From Clostridia bacterium (lineage in GTDB: Bacteria > Bacillota > Clostridia > Oscillospirales > Acutalibacteraceae), in the NCBI GenBank assembly GCA_017544665.1, contig JAFYDS010000035.1:1478-65477 (forward strand): a stretch of 64,000 nt of DNA. The letters are read 5' to 3'. Positions 1,644 to 34,331 of this stretch are shown here, one piece after another. The notes under the pieces are model-generated. The model did no database searches. It was not told the DNA's origin and saw nothing but the letters and a program-made list of their open reading frames with translations. The translations under genes were made by a program, and so were the position numbers. Within the stretch, counting starts at the first letter, position 1. Each line of letters starts with the position of its first letter.

Positions 1644-1728
1644 GCCAAAGAGGATAGAATCGCCGCTTTCTTTCGCTTCCTTTCTTTCTCGCGAAAGAAA
1701 GGAAGGCCCCGCGGCGAGCGATAGAAAA

Positions 1729-1773
1729 AACGCGAACGAGTTTGCACCGTTCGCGTTTTCTTTTTTCTTTTTT
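1729..1773. terminator. Bidirectional intrinsic terminator between convergent CotH gene and trpS
   Basis: Hairpin aacgcgaacg/cgttcgcgtt with A-run upstream and T-run downstream. Confidence 0.7.
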
Positions 1774-1839
1774 GCGCTCGCCGCGCGGGCGTTCCTTTTT
1801 CTTGAAAGAAAAAGGAACCAAAAAGAACTTTATGATTCC

Positions 1840-2850
1840 TTACGGCAAAACAAACCCGATCTTCTTCATCACCTTCTGCAAGGTCCGGTTCGCAACCCGG
1901 CTCGCTCGCTCGGCGCCCTGCGCCGCCACTTCCTTGAGATACGCCTTGTCGTTGCTGTAACGCTCGTAACGCTCCCGAATCGGACGCAGCTCTTCGATCA
2001 CCGCTTCGGCAACCGCCGCCTTGAAATCGCCGTAGCCCTTGCCTGCAAAGTCCGCTTCGATCTGCTCGTTCGTCAGGCCCGTGCAGCACGCGTAAATGGC
2101 CATCAGATTGTTGATGCCTTCCTTGCCGTCGGCAAAGCGCACGCTGCCCTCGCTGTCCGTGACAGCGCTCTTGATCTTCTTGCTGATCACGTCGGGCGCG
2201 TCGAACACAGAGATGTAGCTCTTCGGGTTCGGATCGCTCTTGCTCATCTTCTTGAGCGGATCCTGCAGCGACATCACCCGCGCGCCCTGCTTGCCGATAT
2301 ACGGCTCGGGTACCGTAAACGTCGGGGAATACAGCGTGTTGAACCGCTGCGCAATGTCCCGCGCGATCTCAAGGTGCTGCTTCTGGTCCGCGCCGACGGG
2401 CACAAGGTCCGCCTGGTAAAGCAGAATGTCCGCCGCCATCAGCACCGGATAGGCGAACAGCCCGACGTTGACGTTGTCGGCGTGCGACTGGGATTTATCC
2501 TTGAACTGCGTCATGCGCGACATCTCGCCGAACTGCGTGTAGCAGTTGAGGATCCACGCGAGCTGGCTGTGCGCCGGCACCTGGCTCTGGATGAACAGAA
2601 TGCTTTGGTCCGGGTCGAGCCCGATCGCGAGCAGCAGCGCCAACACATCATTGATCTGCTTGCGGAACTGCGCCGGCTCCTGACGGACCGTGATCGCGTG
2701 CAGATCGGCGACGGCGAACGCGCCGTCGAACTCGTCCGCCAGCGTTTTCCAGTTTTTGAGCGCGCCGAGATAGTTGCCCAGCGTCGGAATGCCGGACGGC
2801 TGAATACAGCTTAAAATGCGCTTTTTCGGCGCTGCGGTTGTTGCTTCCAT
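1840..2850 (-). CDS. trpS: Tryptophan--tRNA ligase
   Basis: Class I aaRS signatures (PSGIPTLGNYLG region, KMSKS as 'KKMSKSD'). Start moved to the internal ATG (MEATT...) preceded by GAGAGGGA; the ORF-track start at 2883 lies about at the predicted TSS. Confidence 0.9.
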   Translation of the reverse strand: MEATTAAPKKRILSCIQPSGIPTLGNYLGALKNWKTLADEFDGAFAVADLHAITVRQEPAQFRKQINDVLALLLAIGLDPDQSILFIQSQVPAHSQLAWILNCYTQFGEMSRMTQFKDKSQSHADNVNVGLFAYPVLMAADILLYQADLVPVGADQKQHLEIARDIAQRFNTLYSPTFTVPEPYIGKQGARVMSLQDPLKKMSKSDPNPKSYISVFDAPDVISKKIKSAVTDSEGSVRFADGKEGINNLMAIYACCTGLTNEQIEADFAGKGYGDFKAAVAEAVIEELRPIRERYERYSNDKAYLKEVAAQGAERASRVANRTLQKVMKKIGFVLP

Positions 2851-2894
2851 AAGGGGTCCCTCTCTTTTCAGGATCAGATTCAAACGACTTTGTT

Positions 2895-2923
2895 ATTATA
2901 GCATACCGCGAAAAAAGTATCAA
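2895..2923 (-). promoter_or_regulatory. Sigma70-type promoter of trpS
   Basis: Minus strand reads TTGATA-17 nt-TATAAT. The leader is short, leaving no room for a T-box. Confidence 0.6.
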
Positions 2924-3012
2924 GAGCGAATGCGTATTTTTCGGTTTTGCACAGGGCCGTTTTGGGCTTTTCAACAGGAAAAATGCCCCAATCAAGGGGC
3001 GGGTGAAAAAAC

Positions 3013-3067
3013 TTCTCCACATTTTCCACGTGGTTTTCCACGATTTTCAACGGGTCGATGTGCAAAA
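3013..3067. promoter_or_regulatory. Cluster of DnaA-box-like 9-mers
   Basis: Direct repeats TTCTCCACA (3013), TTTTCCACG (3022), TTTTCCACG (3034), TTTTCAACG (3044) and inverted TGTGCAAAA (3059), compared with consensus TTATCCACA. Confidence 0.35.
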
Positions 3068-3208
3068 CTATTTTCGAATTGCGCAAAATGAGCGCGTTTA
3101 TTTGGCGCTTTTACCGTTTCTTCCCATGATCCGGGCGGCGCTATTTCGGATAAAATCGACGGTGCTGCAAAAGCTAACACAGAAAGCAAAAGGAGGTCGT
3201 TGTGTGCT

Positions 3209-3472
3209 ATGATCAAAGGGGTCAACCGCCAGGTCGTGGAGGTGCAGGAAACGGACTGCGACTATTTTGAGCGGATCTTGTTTTTTGTCAAACCCGAATA
3301 CGCGAGCCTGAGCGAGGGAAAGATCCGCGAGCGCGCCAGTCAGATCGCGGGGAAGGCGGGCGCCGCCCCACCGACAAAACTGCGCCGCCGTCGTGTGGTG
3401 GATTGTTTGAAAATCGCCGGCGCTCTGGCGGCAGGCTGTCTGCTGACCGTGCTCGCGCTGTCGTTACGGTAG
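3209..3472 (+). CDS. Small hypothetical protein with C-terminal transmembrane anchor
   Basis: AGGAGG at 3191-3196 and ATG at 3209. C-terminal hydrophobic stretch 'IAGALAAGCLLTVLALSL'. Hairpins follow at 3473-3551. No family recognised. Confidence 0.5.
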   Translation: MIKGVNRQVVEVQETDCDYFERILFFVKPEYASLSEGKIRERASQIAGKAGAAPPTKLRRRRVVDCLKIAGALAAGCLLTVLALSLR

Positions 3473-3551
3473 GAAAAACGCGTGGCATTTTTCCTACCGC
3501 TAACTGCTAACTGCTGACAGCTAACAGCTTCAAAGCCCCGCCGGGGCTTTT

Positions 3552-4157
3552 TCAGTTGATCTTGAGGCGGGAGATGTGGAGCCGCGGGTCGTCGACGATA
3601 ATCAGCCGTTTGATCAGCGTGTAGGTCAGCGCCGTGAAGCGTTCGCGCGGCATGGCGTCCGGATCGTGCAGATAGCGGTTGAGGATCCCATAGAACCCGG
3701 CGGACAAAAACGCGTAGAAGTAGTCGTAGCCCTCGCGGTAGGTGGTCTTGTTGTAAGCGGAGAAATACTGGAAAAAGAAGTCGCAGAACATGGTGTTGAC
3801 CCGCGTCCGGAAGGGCTTGGAATAGGTGGAATCCAGCAGCATCATGGCGACGTCCTTGTGGCGGATGAACAGATCGGGCAAACGGCGCACCGTGGCGGTG
3901 ACGCACTCCGGAAAGCCGATCGTCTTGAACTCTTCGAGCAGCTCGGTGATCTCACCGATCAGCGTGTTTTCGATGTCCTCCACCAGCGCGTCGATGTCGG
4001 CGTAGTGGAAATAGAAGGCGTTGCGGCTCATCTGGGCCTCTTCACAGAGCGCCTTGACGGTGATCTTCGGCAAGGGGGTGGTTTTGGCGAGTGTCGCCAG
4101 CGCGGTCTCAAAGCTGCGCTTGGTGCGGCTCACGCAGCGGTAGGTCTTTTTTTCCAT
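3552..4157 (-). CDS. TetR/AcrR family transcriptional regulator
   Basis: N-terminal HTH 'ITVKALCEEAQMSRNAFYFHY'. Start set at MEKKTY. Divergent from the acyl-CoA ligase gene. Confidence 0.85.
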   Translation of the reverse strand: MEKKTYRCVSRTKRSFETALATLAKTTPLPKITVKALCEEAQMSRNAFYFHYADIDALVEDIENTLIGEITELLEEFKTIGFPECVTATVRRLPDLFIRHKDVAMMLLDSTYSKPFRTRVNTMFCDFFFQYFSAYNKTTYREGYDYFYAFLSAGFYGILNRYLHDPDAMPRERFTALTYTLIKRLIIVDDPRLHISRLKIN

Positions 4158-4238
4158 ACAGGGGCTCCTTTTTTTGTTTGTTTTGTGACAGGCGGCCAAG
4201 GCGTGTTTCAAATGGTGCAAATCAGATAAAACTGACCA

Positions 4239-4266
4239 TTGACAATTTATGACAGCCTGTTATAAT
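4239..4266 (+). promoter_or_regulatory. Sigma70-type promoter of the acyl-CoA ligase gene
   Basis: TTGACA-16 nt-TATAAT in the TetR/ligase divergent spacer. Confidence 0.55.
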
Positions 4267-4330
4267 AAGTACAGTGTATCATATTTCTTACACAATGTCA
4301 AACTGGTTTTTCGGAAAAGGAATGATTTTT

Positions 4331-6034
4331 ATGTACGCCGCATACGAAAACTATATTGAGCCGAGAGAGAAATACCTCCCAAAGCCGGAGGGACACGAAT
4401 CGCTGTATGAGTATTTCCTCGAATGCCATCGCCGGATCTCGAACGATATCGGCGACTACACGGCGTTTGTGACGCCGGTCCTCGACAGTTGGACCGAAAC
4501 GCCGATGTCCGTTTTGCTGCGGGATATCGAGCTTCTGGCGGCGTATCTGCGCGCGCAGGGCTTGCGGCAGGGCGACGTGGTGACGGCGTTTATGCCGACC
4601 TGCGCCCACGCGTTCCCGGTGCTGTTCGCCGCGAACAAGCTCGGCCTGATCGTCAACTTCGTCCATCCGCTGACTCCGCCGGACGCGTTGCTGGCGGCGA
4701 TGCGGCACACGAAGAGCAAGTTCCTGTTTATCCTCGACGCGATCAGCGGATACTTCGGCGCCGTGATGGCGCAGTATCCCTGCGTGGTCTGCCGCATCTC
4801 CGATTACTGCACAGGCAAGGCGCTCGCGTATGCGCAGTATAACGAAACGAACAACGTCAAGATTCCGGACGTGCCGTTCACGTTCTACCGCGACGCGCTG
4901 GCGCAGGATCTGCCGGCGGCGGAAACGGTGCGCAACTTCGGCAAAGAGGACGCGGTGTATTTGCAGGGCGGCGGCACGACCGGCAGAAGCAAGACGATTA
5001 TTCTGTCCTCCTTCGCGTTCAACGCGCTGACCTATAAATATTATCTGATGGATATGGCGCACGATTACAAGCGCGATTACGCGCTTTCGGCGCTGCCGTG
5101 CTTCCACGCGTTCGGACTGGGCGGCACGATGCTCTACGCGATCTGCAACGCCTACAAGCCGATCCTGATCTCAAAATTCGACGCCGTGCAGGTCAACGAA
5201 CTAATCCGGCAGCTGCGCGTGATCGAGATCCTCGGCGTGCCGAAGATGTTCCGGAAAATGATGGAGGCGCCGAACTTCGAAAACGAAGGGCTCAAAAACC
5301 TGAAGCTCCTGTTTTCCGGCGGCGATCTGATCAGCGACGCCTTTATCCGGCAGTTTGACGAAACCATTGCAAAGCACGGCTCCACGGCACGGCTGTGCCG
5401 CGGCTACGGTCTGACGGAGATGGCCGCCACGGTCACGTCCAGCTGCTGGCAGCACTTCAAAACGGAATCGACCGGCTATCCGCTGCCCGGCGTCGAGGTG
5501 CAGATCTGGGACGAAGACTGCAAAGAACTGCCGGCCGGCACGGTCGGCGAGATCGTCCTCGCAGGCGACAACATGATGAACGGGTATCTGTCGGACGAAA
5601 ACATACACGAGAGCGGTATTTATGTGGACGACGCGGGCAAAAAATGGGTCCGCAGCGGCGATATGGGCTATCTGGACGAGGACGGCTATCTGTTCTTCTC
5701 CGGCCGCAAAAAGCGCATTATCATCATCGCCGGCTACAATATCTATCCCGCCACGATCGAAGAGCAGGTCGCGAAACTGCCGTATATCAACGAGGTCTGC
5801 GCCGTGCAGGGCTATGACGAAACCGGCAAGCCGCTGGTGAAGCTGTGCGTGTCGCTCAAGGACACGGAAGCGGACAAAGCGGAAGTCATCGCCGCGCTGC
5901 GGGCGTACTGCGAATCGCATATCGAAGGCTACGCCTGTCCGCGCAAATACGAGGTGTTCGGTCTGCTGCCGCGCACGAAGATTGAGAAGATCGACTTCGT
6001 GAAGCTCTCCGACCCGGCGCCGGTCGATGCATAA
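4331..6034 (+). CDS. AMP-dependent synthetase/ligase (acyl-CoA ligase family)
   Basis: Motifs 'GGGTTGRSK', 'GYGLTE', 'SGDMGYLDEDGYLFFSGRKK'. Start ambiguous (4274, 4322 or 4331); 4331 has the best RBS spacing. Confidence 0.85.
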   Translation: MYAAYENYIEPREKYLPKPEGHESLYEYFLECHRRISNDIGDYTAFVTPVLDSWTETPMSVLLRDIELLAAYLRAQGLRQGDVVTAFMPTCAHAFPVLFAANKLGLIVNFVHPLTPPDALLAAMRHTKSKFLFILDAISGYFGAVMAQYPCVVCRISDYCTGKALAYAQYNETNNVKIPDVPFTFYRDALAQDLPAAETVRNFGKEDAVYLQGGGTTGRSKTIILSSFAFNALTYKYYLMDMAHDYKRDYALSALPCFHAFGLGGTMLYAICNAYKPILISKFDAVQVNELIRQLRVIEILGVPKMFRKMMEAPNFENEGLKNLKLLFSGGDLISDAFIRQFDETIAKHGSTARLCRGYGLTEMAATVTSSCWQHFKTESTGYPLPGVEVQIWDEDCKELPAGTVGEIVLAGDNMMNGYLSDENIHESGIYVDDAGKKWVRSGDMGYLDEDGYLFFSGRKKRIIIIAGYNIYPATIEEQVAKLPYINEVCAVQGYDETGKPLVKLCVSLKDTEADKAEVIAALRAYCESHIEGYACPRKYEVFGLLPRTKIEKIDFVKLSDPAPVDA

Positions 6035-6044
6035 ACAACAATAA

Positions 6045-6083
6045 CGGAGCGCATTCCGTAGGAAATGCGCTCCGATTCTTTTT
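6045..6083. terminator. Intrinsic terminator between convergent genes
   Basis: Perfect 11-bp stem cggagcgcatt/aatgcgctccg followed by attcttttt. Confidence 0.7.
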
Positions 6084-6090
6084 CGCAAGA

Positions 6091-8688
6091 TCAGACCAGC
6101 GGTCCGTATTTCGTCTGCAGCCGCGTCAGCTGCGTGAGGATCGTCGGCGAGAGGACCCACAAAAACAGCACCGTTGCCGCCGCGTGGATCAGATCCATCG
6201 GCAGACCGGTTGCGTAATAGCTGAGCAGAATGGCGCGGTTCAGCGCCTCGCCGCCCCAGAGCAGCGCCGCGGCTGGGTTCATGATTCCGCCGTAGAGGAA
6301 GACGGCGCAAAACGCGCCGAACAGGCACAGCGGCAGCCGTTTGCCGGTCAGCAGACCGCAGCGGGCCAGCACACCCGCAAGCGCCCCGGCGGCGCCCATC
6401 GCGAACATTTGGAACGGCGTCCACGGTCCCTGGGCGAACAGGAGATTTGACAGCAGCATGGTCACCGCGCCGACCAGAAAGCCGCTTTCCGCGCCGAGCG
6501 CCGCCCCGGCAAGGATGACGATCGCCAGCACCGGCTTGAACTGCGGGAGCATGAAGAACGCGGTACGTCCGGCGATCGCAAGCGCGCACAGCGCGGCCAG
6601 CACGGCGATCGCGCGGGCGGACGGTCGGCGCCGCTCAAAGCGGATGAAGAAGGGCAGCAGCCCCAGAACGAGCAAAATCAGCGACAGCAGATAATACTGC
6701 GTCACGCCGCAGAAGTGCAGCCCCGCAAGCAGCGCGGCGGGCAGCACGCCGAGCAGCCACACAGCCGAAAACACAGTCTGCCCGCGCGGCGCGGTTGTCG
6801 TGAGTTTGACGCTGAACGTGTCGGCGCTTCGAAGCAGCAGCACCGCGAGCAGCAGACAGGCGGCAAAACCGCCGCAGACCGCCCACTGTTTGGCGGAAAG
6901 AGAGATTCTTGCGCCGGTCTCGAAAAGCATCTGAAAACCGATCGTTTTCGCGGCGAAAAAGCAGCAGACCAGCGCGCCGCAAAGACTCAGAGTACCGAGC
7001 GCTTTGCGCAGCCGGCCGGGCTTTCGCGCGGGGGCAGGCGCAGGTGTTTCCGTTGCGGTCGGCTCGGGTTCCTCCGCCGCGGGGAGGGCAGGCTCTTCTG
7101 TTCCGAACGCGGCGCAAACATCGCGCACAGTGACGCAGCCGGGAAGCAGGCCGCGGGTGATCCGCGCCGTCGCCGTGGTGTACAGGCGGCTTTCCGTGAA
7201 AAAGACGCGTGGTGGCTGCGGCGGACAGACCGCGCCGTCGAACAGCAGCGCACAGCCGTCCGCATAGGCGGCGCAGAACGCAACGTCATGGCTGACGACC
7301 ACGACGCACATCCCGTCGCGGCAGCATTCCCGCAGCAGCGCGGCGAGCGACGCCTTCTGAACGGCGTCGAGCCCCTTTGTCGGCTCGTCGAGCAACAGAA
7401 TATCGGGCTGTGTCAGCAGCAGTTTCGCGAGCGCGAGCCGCTGCGCTTCGCCGCCGGACAGGGTCTCCGGATGGCGGTATTCGAAAGGCGAGAGCCGGAA
7501 CCGGCGCAGCGCCGTCTGATACGCGTCATCGTCCGCGGCGACGGAAAGCAGTTCTTCGCGCACGCTTTCATGCCAGAAGAGATCCTGCGGCTGCTGCGGG
7601 AGGAGGGCGACGCTGCCTTCCTTTTGCAGCGTGCCGTGCTGCGGGTCGCGGACGCCGGCAATCAGCTGCAGCAGCGTCGTTTTGCCGCTGCCGTTCGCGC
7701 CGAGCAGACAGAGCAGCTCACCCCGGTGCGCTGTCAGCGACAGATCGCGCAGCACGTCCGGCGCGTCCTTTTCGTAGCGGAACGATACTTCTTTCAATTC
7801 CAGCGCGGGGTCGCCCGCCGCGTCAGCTGTCGGCGGTTCCGCAGATGAGGGCGTATGAGACAATAAATAGTGTTCTAAAAACGCGCGACCTTCCGCAACG
7901 CTGCAGGGTGGGTCGCCCGTGCCGTTGAGTGCCGCCCAGAGACGGGACGCCGCCGGCATCGCGGCAAGAAACGGCGACTGACTTTCGTGCAGTTGCCGGA
8001 CCGTTTCGCGGGGCGTGCCCTGCGCAGTTAAGACGCCGTCTTCGAGGACGAAGACGCGGTCGCACAGCGGCAGGACGTCTTCGAGCTGGTGTTCGCTGAG
8101 CAGGATCGTGGTGCCGAAATCGCGCCGGATCGTCTGCAGCCACCCGAGGAAAACGGTCGCCGCGTGGGGATCGAGCTGCGACGCCGGCTCGTCGAGCAGC
8201 AGCAGAGAAGGACGGGTCAGCATGACCGACGCGAGCACAAGCAGCTGCTGTTCGCCGCCGGAAAGACTGTTCACGTCGCGGTGCAGCCAGTCGGTGATGC
8301 CGAAATAGGTGGCGGTCTCCGCCACGCGGCGGCGCAGTTCCTCCGGCGGCAGCCCGAGACTTTCTGCGCCGAACGCCAGCTCGTGCAGAACCTTGTCGGA
8401 GACCAGTTGTGTTTGCGGATCCTGCGCGACAAAGCCGATGTTTGCGCTCGCTTCGCGCGGGGAGAGGGCGTCGGGCGCTTTGCCGCCGATCAGCAGCGAA
8501 CCGCTCTGGTCGCCAAGGGGGCGCAGCTGCGGTTTACAAAGGCGCAGCAAGGTGGTTTTGCCGCTGCCGGAACTGCCGCACAAAACGGCGAAGTCGCCCT
8601 GTTCGAGGGTCAGCGAAACGCCGCGCAGCGCGAAAGCAGCCGCGTCGGGATATTGAAAGCTCAGGTTTTCGAGGGCAACGTACGCCAT
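6091..8688 (-). CDS. ECF transporter triple fusion: EcfA-EcfA' tandem ATPases plus C-terminal multi-TM S-component-like domain
   Basis: Walker A GSSGSGKTT and GANGSGKTT, signatures LSGGEQQ and LSGGEAQ, Walker B LLLLDEP and ILLLDEP. A Pro/Glu linker precedes a hydrophobic domain containing 'FAQGPWTPFQMFAMG'. Start at MAYVALE with GGAGGTG RBS. Confidence 0.85.
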   Translation of the reverse strand: MAYVALENLSFQYPDAAAFALRGVSLTLEQGDFAVLCGSSGSGKTTLLRLCKPQLRPLGDQSGSLLIGGKAPDALSPREASANIGFVAQDPQTQLVSDKVLHELAFGAESLGLPPEELRRRVAETATYFGITDWLHRDVNSLSGGEQQLLVLASVMLTRPSLLLLDEPASQLDPHAATVFLGWLQTIRRDFGTTILLSEHQLEDVLPLCDRVFVLEDGVLTAQGTPRETVRQLHESQSPFLAAMPAASRLWAALNGTGDPPCSVAEGRAFLEHYLLSHTPSSAEPPTADAAGDPALELKEVSFRYEKDAPDVLRDLSLTAHRGELLCLLGANGSGKTTLLQLIAGVRDPQHGTLQKEGSVALLPQQPQDLFWHESVREELLSVAADDDAYQTALRRFRLSPFEYRHPETLSGGEAQRLALAKLLLTQPDILLLDEPTKGLDAVQKASLAALLRECCRDGMCVVVVSHDVAFCAAYADGCALLFDGAVCPPQPPRVFFTESRLYTTATARITRGLLPGCVTVRDVCAAFGTEEPALPAAEEPEPTATETPAPAPARKPGRLRKALGTLSLCGALVCCFFAAKTIGFQMLFETGARISLSAKQWAVCGGFAACLLLAVLLLRSADTFSVKLTTTAPRGQTVFSAVWLLGVLPAALLAGLHFCGVTQYYLLSLILLVLGLLPFFIRFERRRPSARAIAVLAALCALAIAGRTAFFMLPQFKPVLAIVILAGAALGAESGFLVGAVTMLLSNLLFAQGPWTPFQMFAMGAAGALAGVLARCGLLTGKRLPLCLFGAFCAVFLYGGIMNPAAALLWGGEALNRAILLSYYATGLPMDLIHAAATVLFLWVLSPTILTQLTRLQTKYGPLV

Positions 8689-9551
8689 TTTGACACCTCC
8701 AGTCGCTGTAGGATCACGGGAAAGAAACAAAGCAAACTATAAAGCAGCGCGCAGAAGAGCGCGAGCGGGGTCGCGTCCGCGCTGTGCGGGGCGGGAAAGT
8801 ATTCGAACCGAAGCAGTCCCGCCGCGTATGCGCCGCAGACTGTGAGCGCTACGCAAAGGAGCACCGGCAGGCAGAGCTTGTCGCGTTCATGCAGCGCGAA
8901 GCGGCTGTAGACTGTGCGGCCCGGCAGCCCGTAGCCGCGGCTTCTCATCGCGTCGGAGACGGCGATCGCGTCTGTCAGCGCGGCGCGCAGCCGGGTCTGA
9001 AACGCCGTAAACGCGCGGCGCAGCGCTTCTCGTTTTGTCCTCGGCGGACCGAGGAGACAGATCTGCGCGTCGCGGGTGCGCTCCAGCGCGCGGCGAAACG
9101 CCGGCAGAAACCGCAGACACAGCCGCAGCAGCAGCGTCAGCGAGGGCGCGGCGCGCGAGAAGAGGTACAGCCCCTTTTCGCTCGTCATCACCGCCGTATA
9201 GCAGCGAAACCACAGCAGCACGGAAAGTAGCAGACACGCGCTCATCACGCCGTACAGCAGACTTTCGCCGGTACAGGGATTGCCCCAGGGGAAGTAGAAC
9301 AGGATATGGACGCCGCGGTGGTTGAACAAAGGGTTCAGCAGCGCGGCGAACGCGCAAAGCGGCAGCGCGCCGCGAAGCACGAACCGCAGCGCTTTGCCGG
9401 GGTACAGCACCGCGTGGCAGCAAAGCGCGCCGCAAAGAGAAATCAGCCGAAACAGCGGGTGGTCCAGCAGGAGCGTTCCGCCGACGGCGCACACAAAAAA
9501 GAGCAGGCTCACGCCCGGATGTAAGCGGTCCATTGCGCTTGTCCGTTCCAT
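8661..9551 (-). CDS. ecfT: ECF transporter transmembrane (T) component, EcfT/CbiQ family
   Basis: Polytopic membrane protein with coupling-helix-like 'DAMRSRGYG'. AAAGGAG RBS. Its 3' end overlaps the start of the ATPase fusion by 28 nt. Confidence 0.85.
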   Translation of the reverse strand: MERTSAMDRLHPGVSLLFFVCAVGGTLLLDHPLFRLISLCGALCCHAVLYPGKALRFVLRGALPLCAFAALLNPLFNHRGVHILFYFPWGNPCTGESLLYGVMSACLLLSVLLWFRCYTAVMTSEKGLYLFSRAAPSLTLLLRLCLRFLPAFRRALERTRDAQICLLGPPRTKREALRRAFTAFQTRLRAALTDAIAVSDAMRSRGYGLPGRTVYSRFALHERDKLCLPVLLCVALTVCGAYAAGLLRFEYFPAPHSADATPLALFCALLYSLLCFFPVILQRLEVSKWRTLPSKT

Positions 9552-9573
9552 GAGTCTGCTCCTTTCGGTGAGA

Positions 9574-10422
9574 TTAAGAATAGTTGTTGTGGCCGCCGAT
9601 GTCGCCGCCGAGATTGCAGGTGTAGCGCCACGCGATCACGTCGCCGTTTTGCAGCTTGTAGTCGGCGCATCCGTAGTTCGGGAACACGCCGTTGACGCTG
9701 TACATCCAGCCGGAGGCGGGGCCGCCGTCGAATTCATAGAGGTTGCCTATGCCCTCGATATAGGCGGTCTGATACAGCGGCGCGATGGAAAACTCCATCT
9801 GCAGCCCGTTTTGGCGGCAGGTGCGCTTGAGCACGTCGAAGACGCTTTCGCCCGCCGTGAACGTGACGCTGCGGGACGACAGCAGAACGCCGTTTTGCGG
9901 CACGAGCGCGCGCTTGCTTTCGTCGAGTTCGTCGAGATGATTCAGCAGCGTTTTGCAGTCGATCGCCAGCGTACAGGTCAGTGTCTGCGGCTGCGTCGTG
10001 GTTGGCGCGGTCGTGGCTTTCGTCGTCGGTGCGGCAGTCGTCGTCGCGGGATGCGTCGTGGCGCGGGCGGTGGTCGCCGCCGTGGTTGCCGCGGGGTGGG
10101 TCGTTGTGGGGGGCGCAGCCTTAGTTGTGGTTTGCTTTGTCGTTGCCGCCGTCGTTGTAGCTGGAGCGGCGGTCGTGGTCGTCTGCGCTGCCGTTGTCGT
10201 CGGTGCGGCAGTCGTTGTTGGGACCGTCGTCTCTGTGGTTGTCGGCGCAGTTGTCGTGATTTCCGCTGCCGCGGTCGAGGAAACGGCCTCCGTACCTGCG
10301 GCAGTTGTGGAAATCGTCGTTGCCGCTTCGGTCGTCGATACCGGCGGCGTTTCTGTCTGTCCGCAGGCGCAAAGCAGCAGGCAAAGTGCCGCGCAGAGCA
10401 GCAAAAACAGTTTACGCGGCAT
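9574..10422 (-). CDS. Lipoprotein with Thr/Ala-rich linker and C-terminal DUF4430-like (transcobalamin beta-domain-like) domain
   Basis: Lipobox 'LLLCACG'. C-terminus 'GIGNLYEFDGGPASGWMYSVNGVFPNYGCADYKLQNGDVIAWRY'. GGGAGGTG RBS. Overlaps the upstream stop codon. Confidence 0.8.
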   Translation of the reverse strand: MPRKLFLLLCAALCLLLCACGQTETPPVSTTEAATTISTTAAGTEAVSSTAAAEITTTAPTTTETTVPTTTAAPTTTAAQTTTTAAPATTTAATTKQTTTKAAPPTTTHPAATTAATTARATTHPATTTAAPTTKATTAPTTTQPQTLTCTLAIDCKTLLNHLDELDESKRALVPQNGVLLSSRSVTFTAGESVFDVLKRTCRQNGLQMEFSIAPLYQTAYIEGIGNLYEFDGGPASGWMYSVNGVFPNYGCADYKLQNGDVIAWRYTCNLGGDIGGHNNYS

Positions 10423-11737
10423 GGCGCACCTCCCGTTTTTTCAGCAGAGACAGCACAGCGCACGCCAGAAGCAGCGTCAGCGCGGCAGGCAGTACGAACG
10501 AGACTTCACCGGTGTGCGGCGTCGCTTCTTTCCGCGCGGCGGTCGTTGCGGGCGCGGCGGTGGTTGTCGGCTTCGCCGTGGTCGGTTCCGCCGCCGGTTT
10601 TGTCGTTGTTATTTCAGTGACTGCTTCGGTGGTCGTCGGCGTGGCCTTTGTCGTCACGGGAGCAGTCGGTGTTTCTGCTGCCGCTTCGGTCGGCACAGTC
10701 GGCTCCGTTGGCGGCTCCGTCGTCGGTTCTTCCATCGGTTCTTCCGCTGCGGGCGTGACGTCCGTGCAGTCGAACAGGAAGGGCTGCCCCTTCAACAGGC
10801 GGTCATAGGCAAGCAGGGCGTAGGTCGCCTGCTCGCTCGCCTGGACGCTCCATTTCTGGCTGTCCTGCGTGTGGACAAAGGCGCGCGCTTCGGGCTGCCA
10901 CGCGTTCAGCAGACAGTCGATCGGCGTGACGCCGTTCTTCTGCAGCCGCGCGTCCGCGGCGGGGTCGATACCCCAGGCGCAGCAGGCCAGCACGACCTGC
11001 GCCGCGCTTTCGGTGTTTTCCGCGCCGATGGTGGCAAAGTTGCCGTTCTCTTTTTGGGCGGCGGACAGCAGCGCAAAGCCGCGGTCACCGACGGCGGCGA
11101 CCGCCGGGTCGTCCCGGTAGGGCGCGAGCCCCTGCAGCACGATGGCGGTGATGTCCACGTCGCTGACGTCGCCCCAGATCGACCAGCCGCCGTCGTCAAA
11201 CTGCGACTGTACCAGATAATCGACGCACTGGGTGCGGATCGTGGGGTCGGCAGTCTCATAGCCGCCGCTGTTCAGCGCGAGCAGGGCGTAGGCGACGGCG
11301 TTGTAGCTTTGCTTCTTGATCCAGCTGAAATCCTCGTACGGGCGCAGCAAATCCCAGCCCCCGACGTCATGCGGATCTTTGCCGAGGGCAGTCAGCGCCA
11401 GTATGGTGCGCGCGTTGTCGGTCGATTTCAGGTCGTGCAGCGCGCCGTCCTGCCGGACGGTTTTCGCCGCGAGCTCCTGTACGGACGCCTCCACCCGCGT
11501 GTAATACGCCGCGACGGCGGGGGTGTTCGCGTTCCAACGGCCGCTGCGCGCGAGGGTGAACACGGTCCAGTCGCCGCCGATCGACGTCGGCTGCAGCGTT
11601 GTGTTCTCTTCGGCGAGCCGGTCCAAAGAAGCCTGCAGCACCGATTCATAAGCGAGCGGCGCCGCCGCCAGCGCCGCCGCGGGCAGAGAAAGCCCGCAAA
11701 GCAGCGTCAGCAGCAGCGCGAAGATGCGTCGTTTCAT
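10412..11737 (-). CDS. Secreted alpha/alpha-toroid (prenyltransferase/terpene-cyclase-repeat-like) protein with sortase-type C-terminal sorting signal
   Basis: Signal peptide. Repeats with 'DDGGWSIWG' and 'ENGNFAT'. Thr/Pro-rich stalk, then 'TPHTGE' plus a hydrophobic helix plus 'KKREVRHAA'. ATGA overlap with the upstream gene. Confidence 0.75.
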   Translation of the reverse strand: MKRRIFALLLTLLCGLSLPAAALAAAPLAYESVLQASLDRLAEENTTLQPTSIGGDWTVFTLARSGRWNANTPAVAAYYTRVEASVQELAAKTVRQDGALHDLKSTDNARTILALTALGKDPHDVGGWDLLRPYEDFSWIKKQSYNAVAYALLALNSGGYETADPTIRTQCVDYLVQSQFDDGGWSIWGDVSDVDITAIVLQGLAPYRDDPAVAAVGDRGFALLSAAQKENGNFATIGAENTESAAQVVLACCAWGIDPAADARLQKNGVTPIDCLLNAWQPEARAFVHTQDSQKWSVQASEQATYALLAYDRLLKGQPFLFDCTDVTPAAEEPMEEPTTEPPTEPTVPTEAAAETPTAPVTTKATPTTTEAVTEITTTKPAAEPTTAKPTTTAAPATTAARKEATPHTGEVSFVLPAALTLLLACAVLSLLKKREVRHAA

Positions 11738-12627
11738 CAGCCGATCTTGAACAGGTTCTTGAAGAAGGCGAGGATGCTGTTGAAGAACGCGACAATGCGA
11801 TCCCAGAAGGAGGCCGCGGTCTCTTCGGGCACGTTCAGCGCGGGGATCGTGGCGTCAACGTCCGCCTGCGTGGCGTCCAGCTTTTCGAGCACGGGCTTCG
11901 CCTGCTTCTTCGTGGCATTGTTGGTGCTTTCGGCATAGGCGATCATCGCCTTGTCCTTATTCGCGTGCGCATAGTACGGCGCGCTGCCGTCCCAGCCGGT
12001 GTAGCCGAGGATGCGGTTCATATCCAGACCCTTGACGTCGCCTTCATCGGGCGTACTGAGCGCAAATTGCATACGGATGACATAGGTGCTGCCGTAGCTG
12101 TTCTGGGTCGTGGCGCTTTTCAGGACGTTATCGCAAAGCGCGTCCCAGGGCATCTCGTCGTTGAGCGTGTACATCCAGCCGGCCCACGCCGCATAGTCGC
12201 CGCCGCCGAGGTCTTTGTCAGTGTTCTTGACGTAGTTGTCGTTCGACGGACCGCCGTTTGCGGTGACAACGGCCGGGAAGTTGACCTTGCCGTCGTCGAT
12301 GTTGCGAACGATGTTGATAGAACCGCCGTTCGTCCATGTACCGCCGTCATACAGCACGGCAGACAGACTGTTGTCATTGAGCATCGCGAGCACTGCCATA
12401 CCGGCGGTCAGCGTATCCTCGGTATAGGGACCGAAGCCGTCTTTCGCGATCAGGTCGTTGATCTGAGAGACCGTGTATTCGGTCGGTTCCACAAAGTAGC
12501 CCTTGCCGAGGGTGAAGCCTTCGAGCGAGACGACGACCTTCATGGCGTCGCCCGCGGCAAAGCCATGAAGCGGTACCGCCGTGCAAAGCAGCAGGCAGAC
12601 AAGCAGGATGGATACGAGTTTTTTCAT
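11737..12627 (-). CDS. Secreted DUF4430-like domain protein with C-terminal amphipathic tail
   Basis: Start at MKKLVSILL (GGGAGAG RBS) with a signal peptide. 'AAWAGWMYTLNDEMPW' core. First gene downstream of the cobalamin riboswitch. Confidence 0.75.
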   Translation of the reverse strand: MKKLVSILLVCLLLCTAVPLHGFAAGDAMKVVVSLEGFTLGKGYFVEPTEYTVSQINDLIAKDGFGPYTEDTLTAGMAVLAMLNDNSLSAVLYDGGTWTNGGSINIVRNIDDGKVNFPAVVTANGGPSNDNYVKNTDKDLGGGDYAAWAGWMYTLNDEMPWDALCDNVLKSATTQNSYGSTYVIRMQFALSTPDEGDVKGLDMNRILGYTGWDGSAPYYAHANKDKAMIAYAESTNNATKKQAKPVLEKLDATQADVDATIPALNVPEETAASFWDRIVAFFNSILAFFKNLFKIG

Positions 12628-12689
12628 TACAATCTCTCCCTTGAGAAAAGTATTAGCTAAAAAGCGCGCAGCCAAACGCAAACAATTTG

Positions 12690-12900
12690 CGTTTCGGTTG
12701 CACGCTTCACGCCCAATCATGAACCCCAAAAAGACCACGGCAGGTGCCTGACTGATGAACAAACGTATAGAAACGCCATTGCGGGTGTTTGTTCAAACAC
12801 AGGAATGGCGGTTGCTCCGGATTTGAACCGGATTCCCTCAGCGGCTTTCTGCCGCTCCTTACTCAGCTCACAACTTTTCAAACCGTGTCTTTGCTATTCG
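12690..12900 (-). promoter_or_regulatory. Cobalamin (B12) riboswitch
   Basis: Minus strand reads 'GAGGGAATCCGGTTCAAATCCGGAGCAACCGCC' (core, 12805..12837). It also has the B12-box-like 'AGTCAGGCACCTGCC' (12739..12754), one nt shorter than consensus. Located in the 5' leader of the operon. Confidence 0.8.
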
Positions 12901-12909
12901 GTTGTGTAT

Positions 12910-12938
12910 AGCTTACCACAAACAGGGAAAAAAGTCAA
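12910..12938 (-). promoter_or_regulatory. Sigma70-type promoter driving the riboswitch and operon
   Basis: Minus strand TTGACT-17 nt-TAAGCT immediately upstream of the riboswitch. Confidence 0.5.
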
Positions 12939-13023: not shown

Positions 13024-13057
13024 AAAAAAGACTCCCGCGCCGCGGGAGTCTTTTTTT
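13024..13057. terminator. Bidirectional intrinsic terminator downstream of jag
   Basis: aaaaaa-gactcccgcg/cgcgggagtc-ttttttt. Confidence 0.8.
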
Positions 13058-14043
13058 CAGTTCAGTTTGCCGTAGAGCGAGACACCTTCGGCACCGGCGT
13101 CGGTCTTCGGCGCGCGGGTCGGCGCGCTGACTGTCTGGCTGCCGCCGCGGTTGCCGCCGCGACCGCCTCTGCCGCCGCGACCGCTGTTTCTGCCGCGGTT
13201 GCCGCCGTTTCTGCCGCCGCCCGGATGGGTCGGTTTGACGCCTTCGGCGAGGGTGATCACCACGCGGCGGTCGTCGTCGTTGCCGACGGAGTGCGAGGTG
13301 ACGCCTTCGATTTCCTGGATCGTCGTGTGGATGATCCGGCGCTCATAGGGGTTCATCGGCTCGAACGTAAAGTTGCGGCCGTATTTGAGCACGCGGTCGG
13401 CGTTCTTCTTCGCGAGTGAGGCGAGCGTGCTCTTTCTCTTTTCGCGGTAGTTGCCGACATTGATCGAGATGCGGGAATACTCTCCCTCGGTCTTTTGCTT
13501 GTTGGCGACCAGTCTGGTCAGATACTGGATCGCGTCCAGCGTTTCGCCGCGGCGGCCGATCACGATCCCGTAATCTTCCCCGCAGTCCAGTTCGAGCAGC
13601 ACTTCGTTGTCCGCGTGGACAAACGCCTTCAGCGAAGGCTCCCGGACGCCCATCAGCTTCACCATTTCCAGCAGATAGGCTGCGCCGGCTTTCACGCCGG
13701 GCTTCGCGTCGATCGCGATCTCGGTCTTCGGAGCGGCTTCCTCCTGCTGCGGCGCGGGCTGCTGCTTCTTTGCAGCTTTCGGCTGCTGCGGCTGCTGTGC
13801 CGCCTTCTGCGGCGCGGGCTGCTGCTTTTGCGGCTTCGGCTGCTGCTTCTTCACCGGCGCGTCCGGCGTTTCGTAATAAGCGCGGGCTTCGGCTTTCTTC
13901 TTGAACAGGCCGAGCAGACCCTTCGACGGATGGGAGATCAACTCCGCGTGCACGTCGGCGTCCGCCGGGGCGTTCAACGCTTCTCTGGCGTTTTTCAGCG
14001 CCTCTTCGATCGTCGCGCCCTGCGCTTTTGCTTCATGAATCAT
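13057..14043 (-). CDS. khpB: Jag/KhpB RNA-binding protein (Jag_N, KH, R3H) with Gln/Pro-rich insert and RGG-rich tail
   Basis: 'MNPYERRIIHTTIQEIEGVTSHSVG' (R3H) and its position downstream of yidC. Insert 'KKQQPKPQKQQPAPQKAAQQPQQPKAAKKQQPAPQQ'. Tail 'GGGRNGGNRGRNSGRGGRGGRGGNRGG'. Confidence 0.85.
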   Translation of the reverse strand: MIHEAKAQGATIEEALKNAREALNAPADADVHAELISHPSKGLLGLFKKKAEARAYYETPDAPVKKQQPKPQKQQPAPQKAAQQPQQPKAAKKQQPAPQQEEAAPKTEIAIDAKPGVKAGAAYLLEMVKLMGVREPSLKAFVHADNEVLLELDCGEDYGIVIGRRGETLDAIQYLTRLVANKQKTEGEYSRISINVGNYREKRKSTLASLAKKNADRVLKYGRNFTFEPMNPYERRIIHTTIQEIEGVTSHSVGNDDDRRVVITLAEGVKPTHPGGGRNGGNRGRNSGRGGRGGRGGNRGGSQTVSAPTRAPKTDAGAEGVSLYGKLN

Positions 14044-14081
14044 TTGATATCACCACCGTATCATACGTTTGTTGTCTGTTG

Positions 14082-15074
14082 TTATGTCGGATCACCTTGC
14101 GCCGCGTCGGCAGAGAGTTGTTTCTTCGTCTGCTCGTAGGAGCGGCGGTAGATCGTCTCGTCGACCATCATGCGGGCAATGGTCTTTCTCGGCGCGTAGA
14201 TGTGGCCGAGGAGCAGGGTCTGGAAGAACGCGAAGATATTGGAGAGGATCCAGTACATACCCATTGCGGCGGGGAACTGGAACGTGAACCAGAGAGACAT
14301 AAGCGGCATGGTGAGCATCATGCAGCCCATCATCTGGGCGTTTTCCATATTGGGGTTGTTTTTCTTCTGGCGCATCTGGGTCAGAACGCTCGTCATCATG
14401 CTCGTCAGGAAAGACAAAAGAGGTATGAGAAGTAAAATCTTTGCCTGCGTCGTCGAGGAGGAGAGGTTCTTCAGCGTAGCGATGTCGGGGACTGCGCCGA
14501 GGTCGATCCCGAAGACGGTGAAATCGAAATCACGGATCTTCTGGATCTCCGCCGGAAATTTCGCGGCGGTTTCCGGAATCTTGACCACGAGCTTGTCGAT
14601 GTTGGAGATCAGCGACGTTTCGATATAGGCGAGACCGCGCGACGAGAGATTGAGACTCGTTTTGGCGACGTTCGTCAGCGCCGTGAGCAGCTCGTCCGGA
14701 ATCTGCAGCACATATTTGAGCGGCTCGCGCACCACGCCGTACAGACCCCAGAGGATGGGGAGCTGGAACAGCAGCGGCATGCAGGAGCCGGCCATGGCGC
14801 TGTAGCCTTCGCGCTGATAGAGTTCGTTGGTCTCTTCCTGGATCTTCTGGTTGCGTTCCTGCGGCGCGTAATCCTGATACTTTTCACGGATCCGCTTGAT
14901 TTTGGGCTGCATCCGCACCTGTGTGGCGGAGCTCTTTTGCTGCTTGATATTGGTCGGCATGATAATCAGCCGGAAGAACAGGGTGAAGATCAGCAGCGCA
15001 AGCCCGTAGTTGTTGATAAAGGAATACAGAATACGGAACAGGAACCCGAAGATCGAGTAAAAAAATGCGAACAT
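14082..15074 (-). CDS. yidC: Membrane protein insertase YidC/SpoIIIJ
   Basis: YidC/Oxa1-like polytopic sequence. GGAGGT RBS. Conserved context rnpA-yidD-yidC-jag. Confidence 0.9.
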   Translation of the reverse strand: MFAFFYSIFGFLFRILYSFINNYGLALLIFTLFFRLIIMPTNIKQQKSSATQVRMQPKIKRIREKYQDYAPQERNQKIQEETNELYQREGYSAMAGSCMPLLFQLPILWGLYGVVREPLKYVLQIPDELLTALTNVAKTSLNLSSRGLAYIETSLISNIDKLVVKIPETAAKFPAEIQKIRDFDFTVFGIDLGAVPDIATLKNLSSSTTQAKILLLIPLLSFLTSMMTSVLTQMRQKKNNPNMENAQMMGCMMLTMPLMSLWFTFQFPAAMGMYWILSNIFAFFQTLLLGHIYAPRKTIARMMVDETIYRRSYEQTKKQLSADAAQGDPT

Positions 15075-15367: not shown

Positions 15368-15702
15368 GCGATCACCCCCAGCGTCTGCAGCGCGTCTTCC
15401 ATCGCGGCGCGTACGACCGGCTCTTTGACACGAGTCGTCTTTGTCCGGGCGACAAAAACGAGGTCCCAGCCGGCAAGATCATGCGCGCACAGCGTGTTTT
15501 GCAGCGCGGCGCGGATCACCCGGCGGGCGCGGTTCCGTTGGACGGCGCCGCCGATCTTTTTGCCGGTCGTGATGCCGACGCGGCAAAGCCCGAGACGGTT
15601 CTTCATGCAATAGACGACCAGCGTGGGTTTCGCGCAGGACTTGCCCTTGTGATACAGCCGCAGAAAATCCTTGTTCAGATTCAGCGAAACAAAAGACGGC
15701 AT
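15364..15702 (-). CDS. rnpA: Ribonuclease P protein component
   Basis: '[16 protein letters not shown]' RNase P motif. ATG at 15702 preferred over the upstream TTG at 15717. Overlaps the yidD start. Confidence 0.9.
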
Positions 15703-15741
15703 AGCATCAACCCTCAACGCAAAATGATATGCAGCGGCGGA

Positions 15742-15876
15742 TCAATAGGTCAGTCTTTTTCTGCCCTTCGCGCGTCTGCGGGAAAGAACCTTGCGGCCGT
15801 TTCTCGTTGCCATTCTTTTGCGGAAGCCGTGTTCCATTTTTCTGTGACGTTTTTTCGGTTGATACGTTCTTTTCAT
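15742..15876 (-). CDS. rpmH: 50S ribosomal protein L34 (not in the supplied ORF track)
   Basis: My translation: [55 protein letters not shown]. The 83-aa track ORF here is in the wrong frame. Confidence 0.95.
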
Positions 15877-15988
15877 TGCGATATACCTCCTTTGTTGTAT
15901 ATTGGTCTTGAACGAAACCGCGCCGAAGACTGCGGTTTGTTGTCTTGTTTGAAGGCATAACTTCTCAGTTTACACCTTGCATTTTGAC

Positions 15989-16018
15989 ATTATATCGCAA
16001 AAGAGCGGGTTCTGTCAA
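15989..16018 (-). promoter_or_regulatory. Strong sigma70-type promoter of rpmH-rnpA-yidD-yidC-jag
   Basis: Minus strand TTGACA-18 nt-TATAAT. Confidence 0.65.
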
Positions 16019-16079
16019 CCGATTTGAGAGATTTTATTACTATAATAAGGAGAATAAGTGAAGAAAACAGGCTTCTTTC

Positions 16080-16108
16080 TTGACTTGTACGCTGTAGCGT
16101 GCTAAAAT
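16080..16108 (+). promoter_or_regulatory. Sigma70-type promoter of the GPH transporter gene
   Basis: TTGACT-17 nt-TAAAAT, 33 nt upstream of the ATG. Confidence 0.6.
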
Positions 16109-16140
16109 GAAAGCCGGAATGACCGGAAAGGAGCGAGTCT

Positions 16141-34236: not shown

Positions 34237-34311
34237 TTGGCACCCCCTGGGGGAATCGAACCCTCAACTGACCCTTAGGAGGGGTCTGTTATATCCATTT
34301 AACTAAGGAGG
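34237..34311 (-). tRNA. tRNA-Arg (anticodon CCT), CCA encoded
   Basis: Hand-folded cloverleaf, 75 nt. Acceptor GCCTCCT/AGGGGGT (2 G-U pairs), D-arm GTTA/TAAC, anticodon stem GACCC/GGGTC, loop CTCCTAA, T-loop TTCGATT. Confidence 0.9.
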
Positions 34312-34331
34312 CATGTATTGCAAATAGTAAT

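Follow-up and report, generated by a model that had tools for sequence, protein, structure and literature searches.

Corrinoids are a contested resource in gut and rumen, and this competition shapes the communities there. To our knowledge, the Gram-positive importers of vitamin B12 that have been characterised are only the BtuFCD type and ECF-CbrT, a member of the energy-coupling factor (ECF) class, and we know of no surface capture proteins matching BtuG or BtuH in these bacteria. Here we have examined a 64-kb window (59.6% G+C) of contig JAFYDS010000035.1, from a Clostridia bacterium of the Acutalibacteraceae, and in it a group of five minus-strand genes that lies behind a cobalamin riboswitch (Table 1). 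The first three genes encode extracytoplasmic proteins (P1, P2 and P3), which combine an alpha/alpha toroid with two DUF4430-type domains, and the last two encode the components of an ECF transporter (P4 and P5). As the preliminary description of this DNA had stated, the genes are tightly packed: they overlap or lie at most 22 nt apart, and a single putative promoter and a single predicted terminator would serve them all.

Table 1. Features of the operon and of its leader in the 64-kb window
Feature	Position	Strand	Basis
Putative sigma-70 promoter: -35 TTGACT (12938-12933), 17-nt spacer, extended -10 TGgTAAGCT (12918-12910)	12910..12938	-	read by eye
Cobalamin riboswitch aptamer (RF00174) with short peripheral (P6-region) extension	12722..12902	-	Rfam covariance model
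Putative expression platform: G+C-rich hairpin (~12708-12664), then TTTTT (12663-12659)	12659..12708	-	minimum free energy and centroid folds
P1, 296 amino acids (aa): signal peptide, divergent DUF4430 (transcobalamin beta-domain type) core	11737..12627	-	hhalign and fold
P2, 441 aa: signal peptide, alpha/alpha toroid, stalk, putative cell-wall sorting signal	10412..11737	-	Pfam and AlphaFold2
P3, 282 aa: lipoprotein, Thr-rich linker, C-terminal canonical DUF4430	9574..10422	-	PF14478
P4: EcfT, transmembrane T component	8661..9551	-	CbiQ below threshold and synteny
P5, 865 aa: EcfA-EcfA'-S fusion	6091..8688 (open reading frame to 8730)	-	two ABC_tran domains and CbrT match
Operon terminator: 13-bp-stem hairpin, predicted to serve both directions	6045..6074	.	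terminator scan

When the whole window was scanned against all 4227 Rfam families, only two exceeded their gathering scores, tRNA and the cobalamin riboswitch RF00174. The second of these matches is full-length (model positions 1-189), scores 36.5 bits (gathering score, 31.5; E=1.2e-5) and bears out the riboswitch that had been placed ahead of the operon. Both a B12 box (AGUCAGGCACCUGCCG) and a core (GGGAAUCCGGUUCAAAUCCGGAGC) can be recognised in the aptamer, and this core is common to the riboswitches of related loci (alignment A6). The putative promoter precedes the aptamer by some 8 nt. The TTGACT/TAAGCT pair named in the preliminary description can indeed be read in the sequence, but its -10 hexamer fits the consensus at only three of six positions, which is why the consensus scan passed it over; with its extended -10 and its correct distance to the aptamer it is a plausible promoter that has no statistical support. 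Downstream, 95 nt separate the end of the aptamer from the ATG of P1, and the terminator hairpin and T-run are found in between. The hairpin was present in both the minimum free energy and the centroid structures, its inner stem (12680-12665) was listed by the consensus terminator scan, and the leader was more stable than all of 200 shuffled sequences (z = -3.27). The ribosome-binding site GGGAGAG, followed by the P1 start codon at 12627, comes about 30 nt after the hairpin and T-run. Such a layout is typical of OFF switches that terminate transcription, and the leader is predicted to act as an intrinsic-terminator-type OFF switch that would respond to its ligand. At the distal end, the operon shares its strong terminator with a convergent acyl-CoA-ligase-like gene (4274-6034).

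Among the surface proteins, P3 corresponds to what had been described, a DUF4430-like lipoprotein. Its DUF4430 domain matched PF14478 with 78.9 bits (cut-off 23.8, E=3.9e-22), and its N-terminus carries the lipobox LLLCAC-G (LLCAC), which fits the PROSITE-style pattern. Lipobox and domain are connected by a Thr/Ala/Pro linker of 144 residues (41% Thr) that is predicted to be long enough to span the wall.

P2 had been described as a wall-sorted toroid of the prenyltransferase-repeat type. The toroid was confirmed by the AlphaFold2 monomer prediction, which was confident (predicted local distance difference test score, pLDDT, 84 for the whole model and higher than 95 for the greater part of residues ~60-330). 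P2 itself reached 24.1 bits with SQHop_cyclase_C, just below the cut-off of 26.1; in a Pfam comparison of 44 toroid relatives (E<=0.1; 23 families), 41 matched SQHop_cyclase_C and 34 matched Prenyltrans, and none matched the eukaryotic cobalamin-binding protein family (PF01122) or any other alpha-toroid family. Comparison of the P2 model using Foldseek returned, among its best matches, transcobalamin (2v3n, E=1.8e-4; 2bb6 and 2bb5, E=1e-3; probability 1.00), and class II terpene cyclases matched it as well as transcobalamin did. Residues 193-198 of P2 read DVDITA, in which D193, D195 and T197 are invariant or nearly so across the family; the motif resembles the catalytic DxDDTA of squalene-hopene cyclase, and in place of the fourth Asp the members of the family have Ile, Leu or Met. 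We considered whether P2 might be a terpene cyclase and rejected it on three grounds: the protein is extracytoplasmic, as judged by its signal peptide and putative sorting signal, the DxDD motif is incomplete, and there is a single toroid. Regarding wall sorting, the toroid is followed by a Thr/Ala/Pro/Glu stalk of 76 residues and then by a putative sorting signal made up of TPHTGE, the hydrophobic stretch FVLPAALTLLLACAVLSLL and the basic end KKREVRH. Its motif is the variant TPHTG, the NCBIfam LPXTG model gave 17.7 bits only, and no sortase motif TLxTC was found among the open reading frames of at least 150 aa in the window. Homologues of P2 carry the sorting motifs VPKTGD, GPKTGD or TPHTGD.

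P1 was divergent. It had no match in Pfam or NCBIfam, only noise when compared with the sequences of the Protein Data Bank (PDB; 3nng, E=0.05), and only 15 close relatives among 5.8 billion protein clusters. When the profile of the P1 family was compared with the canonical DUF4430 profile using hhalign, the two aligned with 96.6% probability (E=6e-10) across the GWMY..VN and Y.I.W.F signature strands, the alignment passing round an insert of about 30 residues, and iterated local profiles also converged on DUF4430. A narrow DUF4430 profile (A5) recovered no PDB relative, transcobalamin included, and was hence uninformative. The AlphaFold2 model of P1 (pLDDT 82.7) had as its five top matches intrinsic factor (twice), transcobalamin and both chains of the bacterial DUF4430 structure 3u7z, none of them significant (best E=0.09). 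We therefore based the DUF4430 assignment on hhalign and the converging iterated profiles, as Pfam, NCBIfam, PDB and fold comparisons were inadequate for it. Consequently, the earlier label "DUF4430-like" holds by profile-profile comparison, but Pfam and NCBIfam are silent and the fold matches weak; the expected resemblance of the predicted folds to transcobalamin was obtained with the P2 monomer and, more weakly, with P1. After the core, P1 continues into a helical extension and ends in an amphipathic helix that is strictly conserved in free P1 proteins (alignment A1) and absent from the forms fused to a toroid. P1 need not be the freely secreted protein that the preliminary description saw in it. 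Anchoring in the membrane through the C-terminus was rejected, since its hydrophobic run is about 12 residues long and broken by charged residues. The helix may replace the covalent link to the toroid.

The transporter half of the operon also agreed with the preliminary description, which had recognised an EcfT and an EcfA-EcfA'-S fusion; ABC domains, a match to CbrT and conserved synteny all point to it. P4 scored 19.3 bits with CbiQ/EcfT, below threshold, and its homologues occupy the same position in 54 related loci. The probable ATG of P5 (8688) overlaps the end of P4. P5 contains two ABC_tran domains that scored 272 bits with ECF_ATPase_1 and 264 bits with ECF_ATPase_2 (NCBIfam equivalog cut-offs, 315 and 330); EcfA-EcfA' extends from residue 1 to ~530. 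A linker of Pro and Glu comes next, then a set of about four additional transmembrane helices (567-684) and, at the C-terminus, the six-helix S component (694-865). Among 177,635 distinct PDB sequences, the only match to the S domain was 6fnp_A, which is CbrT, an S component specific for vitamin B12 (E=1.2e-10, 168 of 182 residues). The Pfam matches of P2, P4 and the S domain were all under the curated thresholds, and so was an ECF_trnsprt match of 19.6 bits.

CbrT has been shown experimentally to support the uptake of cobalamin and cobinamide (PMC5997447). The window system resembles ECF-CbrT of Lactobacillus delbrueckii (PDB 6FNP; Santos et al. 2018, PMC5997447) in its S homologue, its EcfT, its two EcfA and its B12-linked control. 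It differs in that the module is encoded within the operon, whereas that of ECF-CbrT is shared; in that A, A' and S form one chain of 865 aa with the extra helices; and in that three extracytoplasmic proteins are encoded alongside, whereas ECF-CbrT works without any. As EcfT, two EcfA-type ATPases and S are encoded together, the module is predicted to be of group I (dedicated). The window transporter is a new architectural variant (group I, A-A'-S fusion) of ECF-CbrT.

We next compared the operon with related loci. A broad toroid alignment (A2) had no conserved stretch, and a closer alignment (A3) was used for a genome scan, which matched 253 species of the Genome Taxonomy Database (GTDB). The best 80 loci, each from a different species, were studied, and their gene content was read with profiles built from the window's own proteins. 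One of them (L004, contig JAEEUW010000062.1 of the rumen metagenome-assembled genome (MAG) "Clostridiaceae bacterium Tb.RUG.438") is 100% identical to the window over the matched gene. Results showed a recurring order of DUF4430 domain, toroid, DUF4430 lipoprotein, EcfT, EcfAA' and CbrT-like S. ECF genes adjoin the toroid and DUF4430 genes in 55 of the 80 loci, T, A and S are all present in 49, and an A-S fusion like that of the window occurs in 33; at least two DUF4430-bearing genes were found in 43. A P3-type gene occupies the same position in most related loci, and it is present even where the P1-type domain is missing (for example L010, L013, L017 and L018).

The first DUF4430 domain and the toroid are joined in one polypeptide in 41 of the 80 loci. 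This beta-alpha order is dominant, and the alpha-beta order of transcobalamin was found in L054 and in protein P0063. When 1.84 billion representative proteins were searched exhaustively with a profile, 948 carried the P1-type domain; among the best 150 of these, the domain is mostly N-terminal in proteins of 600-2,500 residues, and only a handful are free-standing P1-type proteins matching through the C-terminal helix. The split arrangement of the window is thus a rare variant of the beta-alpha fusion. The toroid is also fused to the S component in several Joint Genome Institute (JGI) proteins and in L087 (JGI metagenome 3300050239; 73% G+C, on account of which we took it as actinobacterial). 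In the latter (1086-7911), a 65.7-bit RF00174 match precedes genes for two proteins of the DUF4430 type (one secreted and DUF4430-like, the other a DUF4430 lipoprotein), EcfT, EcfAA' and the S-toroid fusion. The components are the same as in the window, and the S part of the fusion shares 35% identity with the window S domain. Anchoring among relatives is by dockerin, SLH domain or sortase signal. In L001, a DUF4430-toroid fusion with a sortase-type anchor (P0057) and a DUF4430 gene lie directly behind a 63.3-bit RF00174 match, with no ECF genes nearby.

To follow the riboswitch through these loci, we used a custom covariance model (R1) built from seven Rfam-verified elements; it holds 12 base pairs only and is therefore mostly a sequence profile. 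R1 found riboswitch-like elements upstream and on the same strand in 51 of the 80 loci, 12 of the riboswitch-bearing loci being without nearby ECF genes. Of the R1 matches with E<1e-3, 55 of 56 had the same orientation as the toroid gene, and almost all of them immediately preceded the first gene. Rfam itself scored above the gathering threshold in L009, L011 (twice), L016 and L068, ahead of the cluster, and in L001, ahead of the pair without ECF genes; the strongest Rfam score among related loci reached 79 bits. The elements of Ruminococcus bromii and Ruminococcoides fell below the threshold (27 and 27.3 bits); they keep the core and the B12 box and lack the peripheral extension. The co-occurrence of this gene set with elements like the B12 riboswitch, for which the preliminary description had suggested a survey, was thus found on a broad scale.

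Several relatives showed further peculiarities. On another contig of the MAG that holds L004 (JAEEUW010000008.1; L006, 6749-9101), which is the same MAG as that of the window, there is a second pair of P1-type and toroid genes with its own riboswitch-like leader (R1, 76 bits); its toroid is 72% identical, and the contig breaks off within the toroid gene or directly behind it. Of the non-identical relatives whose upstream region is complete, L007 (4157-6958) and L009 (3692-6544) are the two closest; in both, a protein of ~940 aa with a weak match to aBig_2 ("atrophied bacterial Ig") is encoded between the riboswitch and the P1-type gene, as a further member of the putatively B12-controlled operon, and the window has none. 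L011 contains a group II intron (RF02004, 167 bits; RF00029) just upstream of the riboswitch, and beyond its ECF genes another DUF4430 gene follows that has a cobalamin riboswitch of its own, the second of the locus (59 bits; 5118-6206 and 15602-16924). A coherent subgroup comprising L032, L034-L037, L039, L040 and L046, with the order toroid, DUF4430, T, A and separate S, carries one more gene for an ABC ATPase, some 3 kb upstream. Giant surface proteins of 1,400-2,500 aa, with DUF4430 and toroid among other modules, were found in L042, L050, L051, L056, L058, L074, L079, L080 and L082, several of these loci being without adjacent ECF genes and without riboswitch; such proteins may be corrinoid-binding and adhesin-like or have another role.

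The preliminary description knew of no experimental account of such a module. This proved to be incorrect, since an equivalent operon of Lactobacillus sakei was described, deleted and complemented in 2019, in work that also appeared in Appl Environ Microbiol in 2020. The operon, lsa1836-1840, encodes ECF S, AA' and T together with two signal-peptide proteins that the authors likened to the domains of transcobalamin, Lsa1839 (beta-like) and Lsa1840 (alpha-like); it had been auto-annotated as cobalamin transport and was interpreted as heme uptake (bioRxiv 10.1101/864751). Its deletion lowered cellular heme and complementation or overexpression raised it; in silico docking, the only evidence of binding, could place heme between models of the alpha and beta proteins, and the authors stated that their S component is without cobalamin-binding residues (bioRxiv 10.1101/864751). 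No B12 was tested in that study, and the word riboswitch occurs 0 times in it (bioRxiv 10.1101/864751). Going by the description in the paper, the gene content is the same as in the window; a protein search seeded with CbrT returned no entry named L. sakei. The L. sakei system differs from that of the window in that it has a single beta-like protein, its S component has its own gene and anchoring by sortase, dockerin or lipid was not reported for it, in its claimed substrate, heme, and in that no riboswitch was considered.

The second system on record is that of R. bromii. In strain ATCC 27255 (NZ_NNSR01000026.1; L062, 7104-13499), a sub-threshold RF00174 match precedes genes for a DUF4430-toroid-dockerin protein, a DUF4430 protein, EcfT and an EcfAA'-S fusion. 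The C-terminal dockerin is of type I (E=7.9e-11), and through it the toroid protein is presumably displayed on the cohesins of the amylosome. This dockerin protein has been listed as a "putative terpene cyclase", associated with the amylosome and of unspecified role (Ze et al. 2015, PMC4611034), and R. bromii reportedly lacks the ability to synthesise B12 (PMC6231298, citing Ze et al. 2015). Compared with the window, anchoring would be by cohesin and dockerin instead of a putative sortase signal, and beta and alpha are fused instead of separate.

A minimal form of the partnership exists in contigs of the Lactobacillales type, in which a DUF4430 gene of 123-136 residues stands immediately before a cbrT homologue. 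In two of three such contigs (L085 and L086) the pair lies behind an AdoCbl riboswitch of about 100 bits and adjoins a Cob_adeno_trans (PduO-type) gene. In the third, from Loigolactobacillus backii (L084, 7649-8531), the DUF4430 gene overlaps the start of cbrT by 20 nt and, unlike L085 and L086, there is no riboswitch at the gathering score. A cluster nrdJ-cbrS-cbrT-pduO has been described in Lactobacillales (PMC5997447), and to judge from its position cbrS appears to be the DUF4430 gene. On this reading, the cbrS-cbrT pair shares with the window the DUF4430-CbrT partnership, in L085 and L086 behind an AdoCbl riboswitch, and unlike the window it is without toroid and without a dedicated ECF module. 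Distant versions of the system thus lie behind strong matches to RF00174 or RF01482.

Outside these bacteria, the closest parallel in design is that of transcobalamin, intrinsic factor and haptocorrin, which likewise consist of an alpha6/alpha6 toroid and a DUF4430 beta domain, the likeness resting on the PF14478 match of P3, the P2 model and the fold matches of P1. In the window the parts are encoded by separate genes and predicted to be anchored, while the fusions of relatives are mostly beta-alpha; the toroid is outside the eukaryotic cobalamin-binder Pfam family and nearer to squalene-cyclase/prenyltransferase repeats; and delivery is proposed to be to an ECF transporter, not to an endocytic receptor. 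In function, a parallel can be drawn with the B12-binding surface lipoproteins BtuG and BtuH of Bacteroides, of which BtuG is a beta-propeller. These are surface binders regulated by corrinoids that feed a transporter in the competition for B12 in the gut, which is the role proposed here (PMC6143338). Their folds are unrelated, their envelope is Gram-negative and their partner is the TonB-dependent BtuB, so that this is an analogy and not a homology. In the searchable literature we found no paper on corrinoid binding by bacterial DUF4430, transcobalamin-like, CbrS or prenyltransferase-type proteins. Hence the accessory module as such is already on record, as transcobalamin-like proteins in L. 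sakei and as a "terpene cyclase" in R. bromii; membership in the B12-riboswitch regulon, the breadth of distribution, the alpha, beta and S fusions, the design with two beta proteins and a binding experiment were not found in the searchable literature.

Taken together, these data indicate that the window probably contains a corrinoid-scavenging operon, off when corrinoid is present, whose surface clamp would present corrinoid to a dedicated ECF importer. What had been suggested at the outset, a corrinoid-riboswitch operon that joins an ECF importer to separate toroid and DUF4430 proteins, is thus favoured by the comparative evidence, but the likeness of the toroid to transcobalamin exists at the level of the fold only. 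The riboswitch would bind cobalamin when there is enough of it and the leader terminator would form, whereas under starvation all five genes would be transcribed. EcfT and the EcfA-EcfA' fusion to a CbrT-type S component would then import cobalamin or cobinamide by toppling, as ECF-CbrT does, a substrate suggested by homology. At the surface, the toroid on its wall stalk and one or both of the DUF4430 beta-grasp proteins would clamp the corrinoid, mirroring the human carriers, and present it to S. We infer this capture step from the fold similarity, the fusions (beta-alpha, alpha-beta and S-alpha) and the shared riboswitch control. The toroid-DUF4430 complex may sit on the S component or shuttle to it, and lipoprotein P3, with its long flexible linker, could move between the toroid at wall level and the membrane. 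Because fusions link them, the P1-type beta domain would pair with the toroid and the toroid would be near S; because P3 is present where the P1-type domain is absent, it would be the more constant partner of the toroid. A relay chain at three depths (secreted, wall-linked and lipid-anchored), as first imagined, is compatible with the data and is a conjecture. The benefit would be that scarce corrinoids are caught with very high affinity and kept at the surface in the competitive gut and rumen, which would make the system a Gram-positive counterpart of BtuG/BtuH.

Several observations weigh against this interpretation. The RF00174 score of the window exceeds its threshold by 5 bits only. In three of the closest relatives (L006, L007 and L013), the elements matched by R1 were unseen by Rfam at E<=0.05; we accepted them because they hold the invariant core GGGAAUCCGGUUCGAAUCCGGAGCAACCGCCAUUCCUGU...CAUCAGUCAGGCACCUGCCG common to the Rfam-verified members. 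About 29 of the 80 loci had no riboswitch by R1, about 8 of these being cut off upstream, and in the subgroup from L032 to L046 described above, which seems to be genuinely without it, neither R1 nor Rfam found one. The toroid is transcobalamin-like in fold only and belongs by sequence to the prenyltransferase/squalene-cyclase repeats, and its kept cyclase-like DVDITA motif leaves room for an enzymatic role or another ligand. Moreover, ECF S components bind with high affinity alone and we know of no extracytoplasmic partners that they need. Finally, the only experimental study of an equivalent operon, that of L. sakei, saw effects on heme, B12 being untested there.

The last point raises the alternative that the operon imports heme or another non-corrin tetrapyrrole, with the transcobalamin-like proteins scavenging heme. 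A heme importer would have no reason to be under cobalamin-riboswitch control, yet elements of this kind precede 51 of the 80 loci and are also carried by L001, L085, L086 and L087; besides, the only structural relative of the S domain is the B12 component CbrT, and the DUF4430-cbrT pairs adjoin a gene for a cobalamin adenosyltransferase. The changes in heme content after deletion and complementation of lsa1836-1840, the heme docked between the alpha and beta models and the S component without cobalamin-binding residues speak for heme in L. sakei, in a study in which B12 was untested, riboswitches were unconsidered and binding was addressed by docking only. Because cobalamin-riboswitch control extends over two phyla and the S domain is related to CbrT, corrinoids are far likelier than heme, and we regard heme import as very unlikely. 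A different division of labour, in which the ECF-CbrT-type transporter imports corrinoids while the surface proteins, instead of catching free corrinoid and handing it over, strip B12 from carrier proteins of host or diet, store it at the surface or withhold it from competitors, or in which the toroid is an enzyme whose substrate is a corrinoid or belongs to the envelope, seems to us unlikely, although somewhat less so. It would account for the invariant Asp of the DxDxTA motif, as in class II cyclases, and for the cyclase/prenyltransferase model matches of the toroid family, but DVDI has lost the fourth Asp of the DxDD motif, the protein has a single toroid domain and prenyl diphosphate substrates are absent from the extracytoplasmic space. 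The giant multidomain relatives without adjacent ECF genes (L050, L051 and L056), the 12 riboswitch-bearing loci without ECF genes nearby and anchoring by dockerin, SLH domain or sortase would likewise suit display on the surface; on the other side, the S-toroid fusions of L087 and several JGI proteins and the near-constant order of toroid, DUF4430, T, A and S point to a physical coupling with the transporter. It could also be argued from the marginal riboswitch (36.5 against 31.5 bits) and the below-threshold Pfam matches of P2, P4 and the S domain that unrelated wall proteins merely precede an ECF transporter of unknown substrate. Such an association without function is highly improbable and effectively refuted by the comparative data, as order and content recur over 80 species and two phyla, the riboswitches reach 79 bits with Rfam and the genes are fused in multiple ways; within the window itself, the genes are packed to within 22 nt between one promoter and one terminator.

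Corrinoid capture and import thus being the preferred interpretation, a more general proposal can be made, which we advance tentatively and with slightly less than even confidence: a bipartite Gram-positive corrinoid binder, found in Clostridia, Lactobacillales and a presumed actinobacterial lineage, may dock on the ECF S component and feed it. If this is true, the ECF class, by definition devoid of such proteins, would have its first extracytoplasmic partner for substrate capture; the binder would moreover be a prokaryotic counterpart, and perhaps the evolutionary origin, of the two-part (alpha plus beta) build of human transcobalamin, intrinsic factor and haptocorrin, and the "heme" system of L. 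sakei would really be a B12 system.

The operon type is present in at least 253 species-level genomes, including the keystone starch degrader R. bromii, whose locus provides a cultured carrier and a ready experimental system. Should toroid and DUF4430 proteins bind corrinoids, this would explain how these auxotrophs compete for B12, overturn the textbook view that ECF transporters have no extracytoplasmic binding proteins and give an evolutionary context to the two-domain human B12 carriers. For the literature, the implication is that heme is a probable substrate misassignment in the only experimental paper on the system, and that "terpene cyclase / prenyltransferase" is a misleading annotation on hundreds of genomes.

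Regarding the surroundings of the operon, the region directly upstream (13057-15074, minus strand) encodes a YidC-like protein and a Jag/KhpB-like protein (R3H-type RNA-binding, with a Gly/Arg-rich tail), both judged from the translations alone, and these genes end in their own terminator. The pair YidC and Jag/KhpB is usually located near the chromosomal replication origin. The tRNA match of the Rfam scan corresponds to a single tRNA gene (34241-34312, minus strand; 55.2 bits) that is unrelated to the operon.

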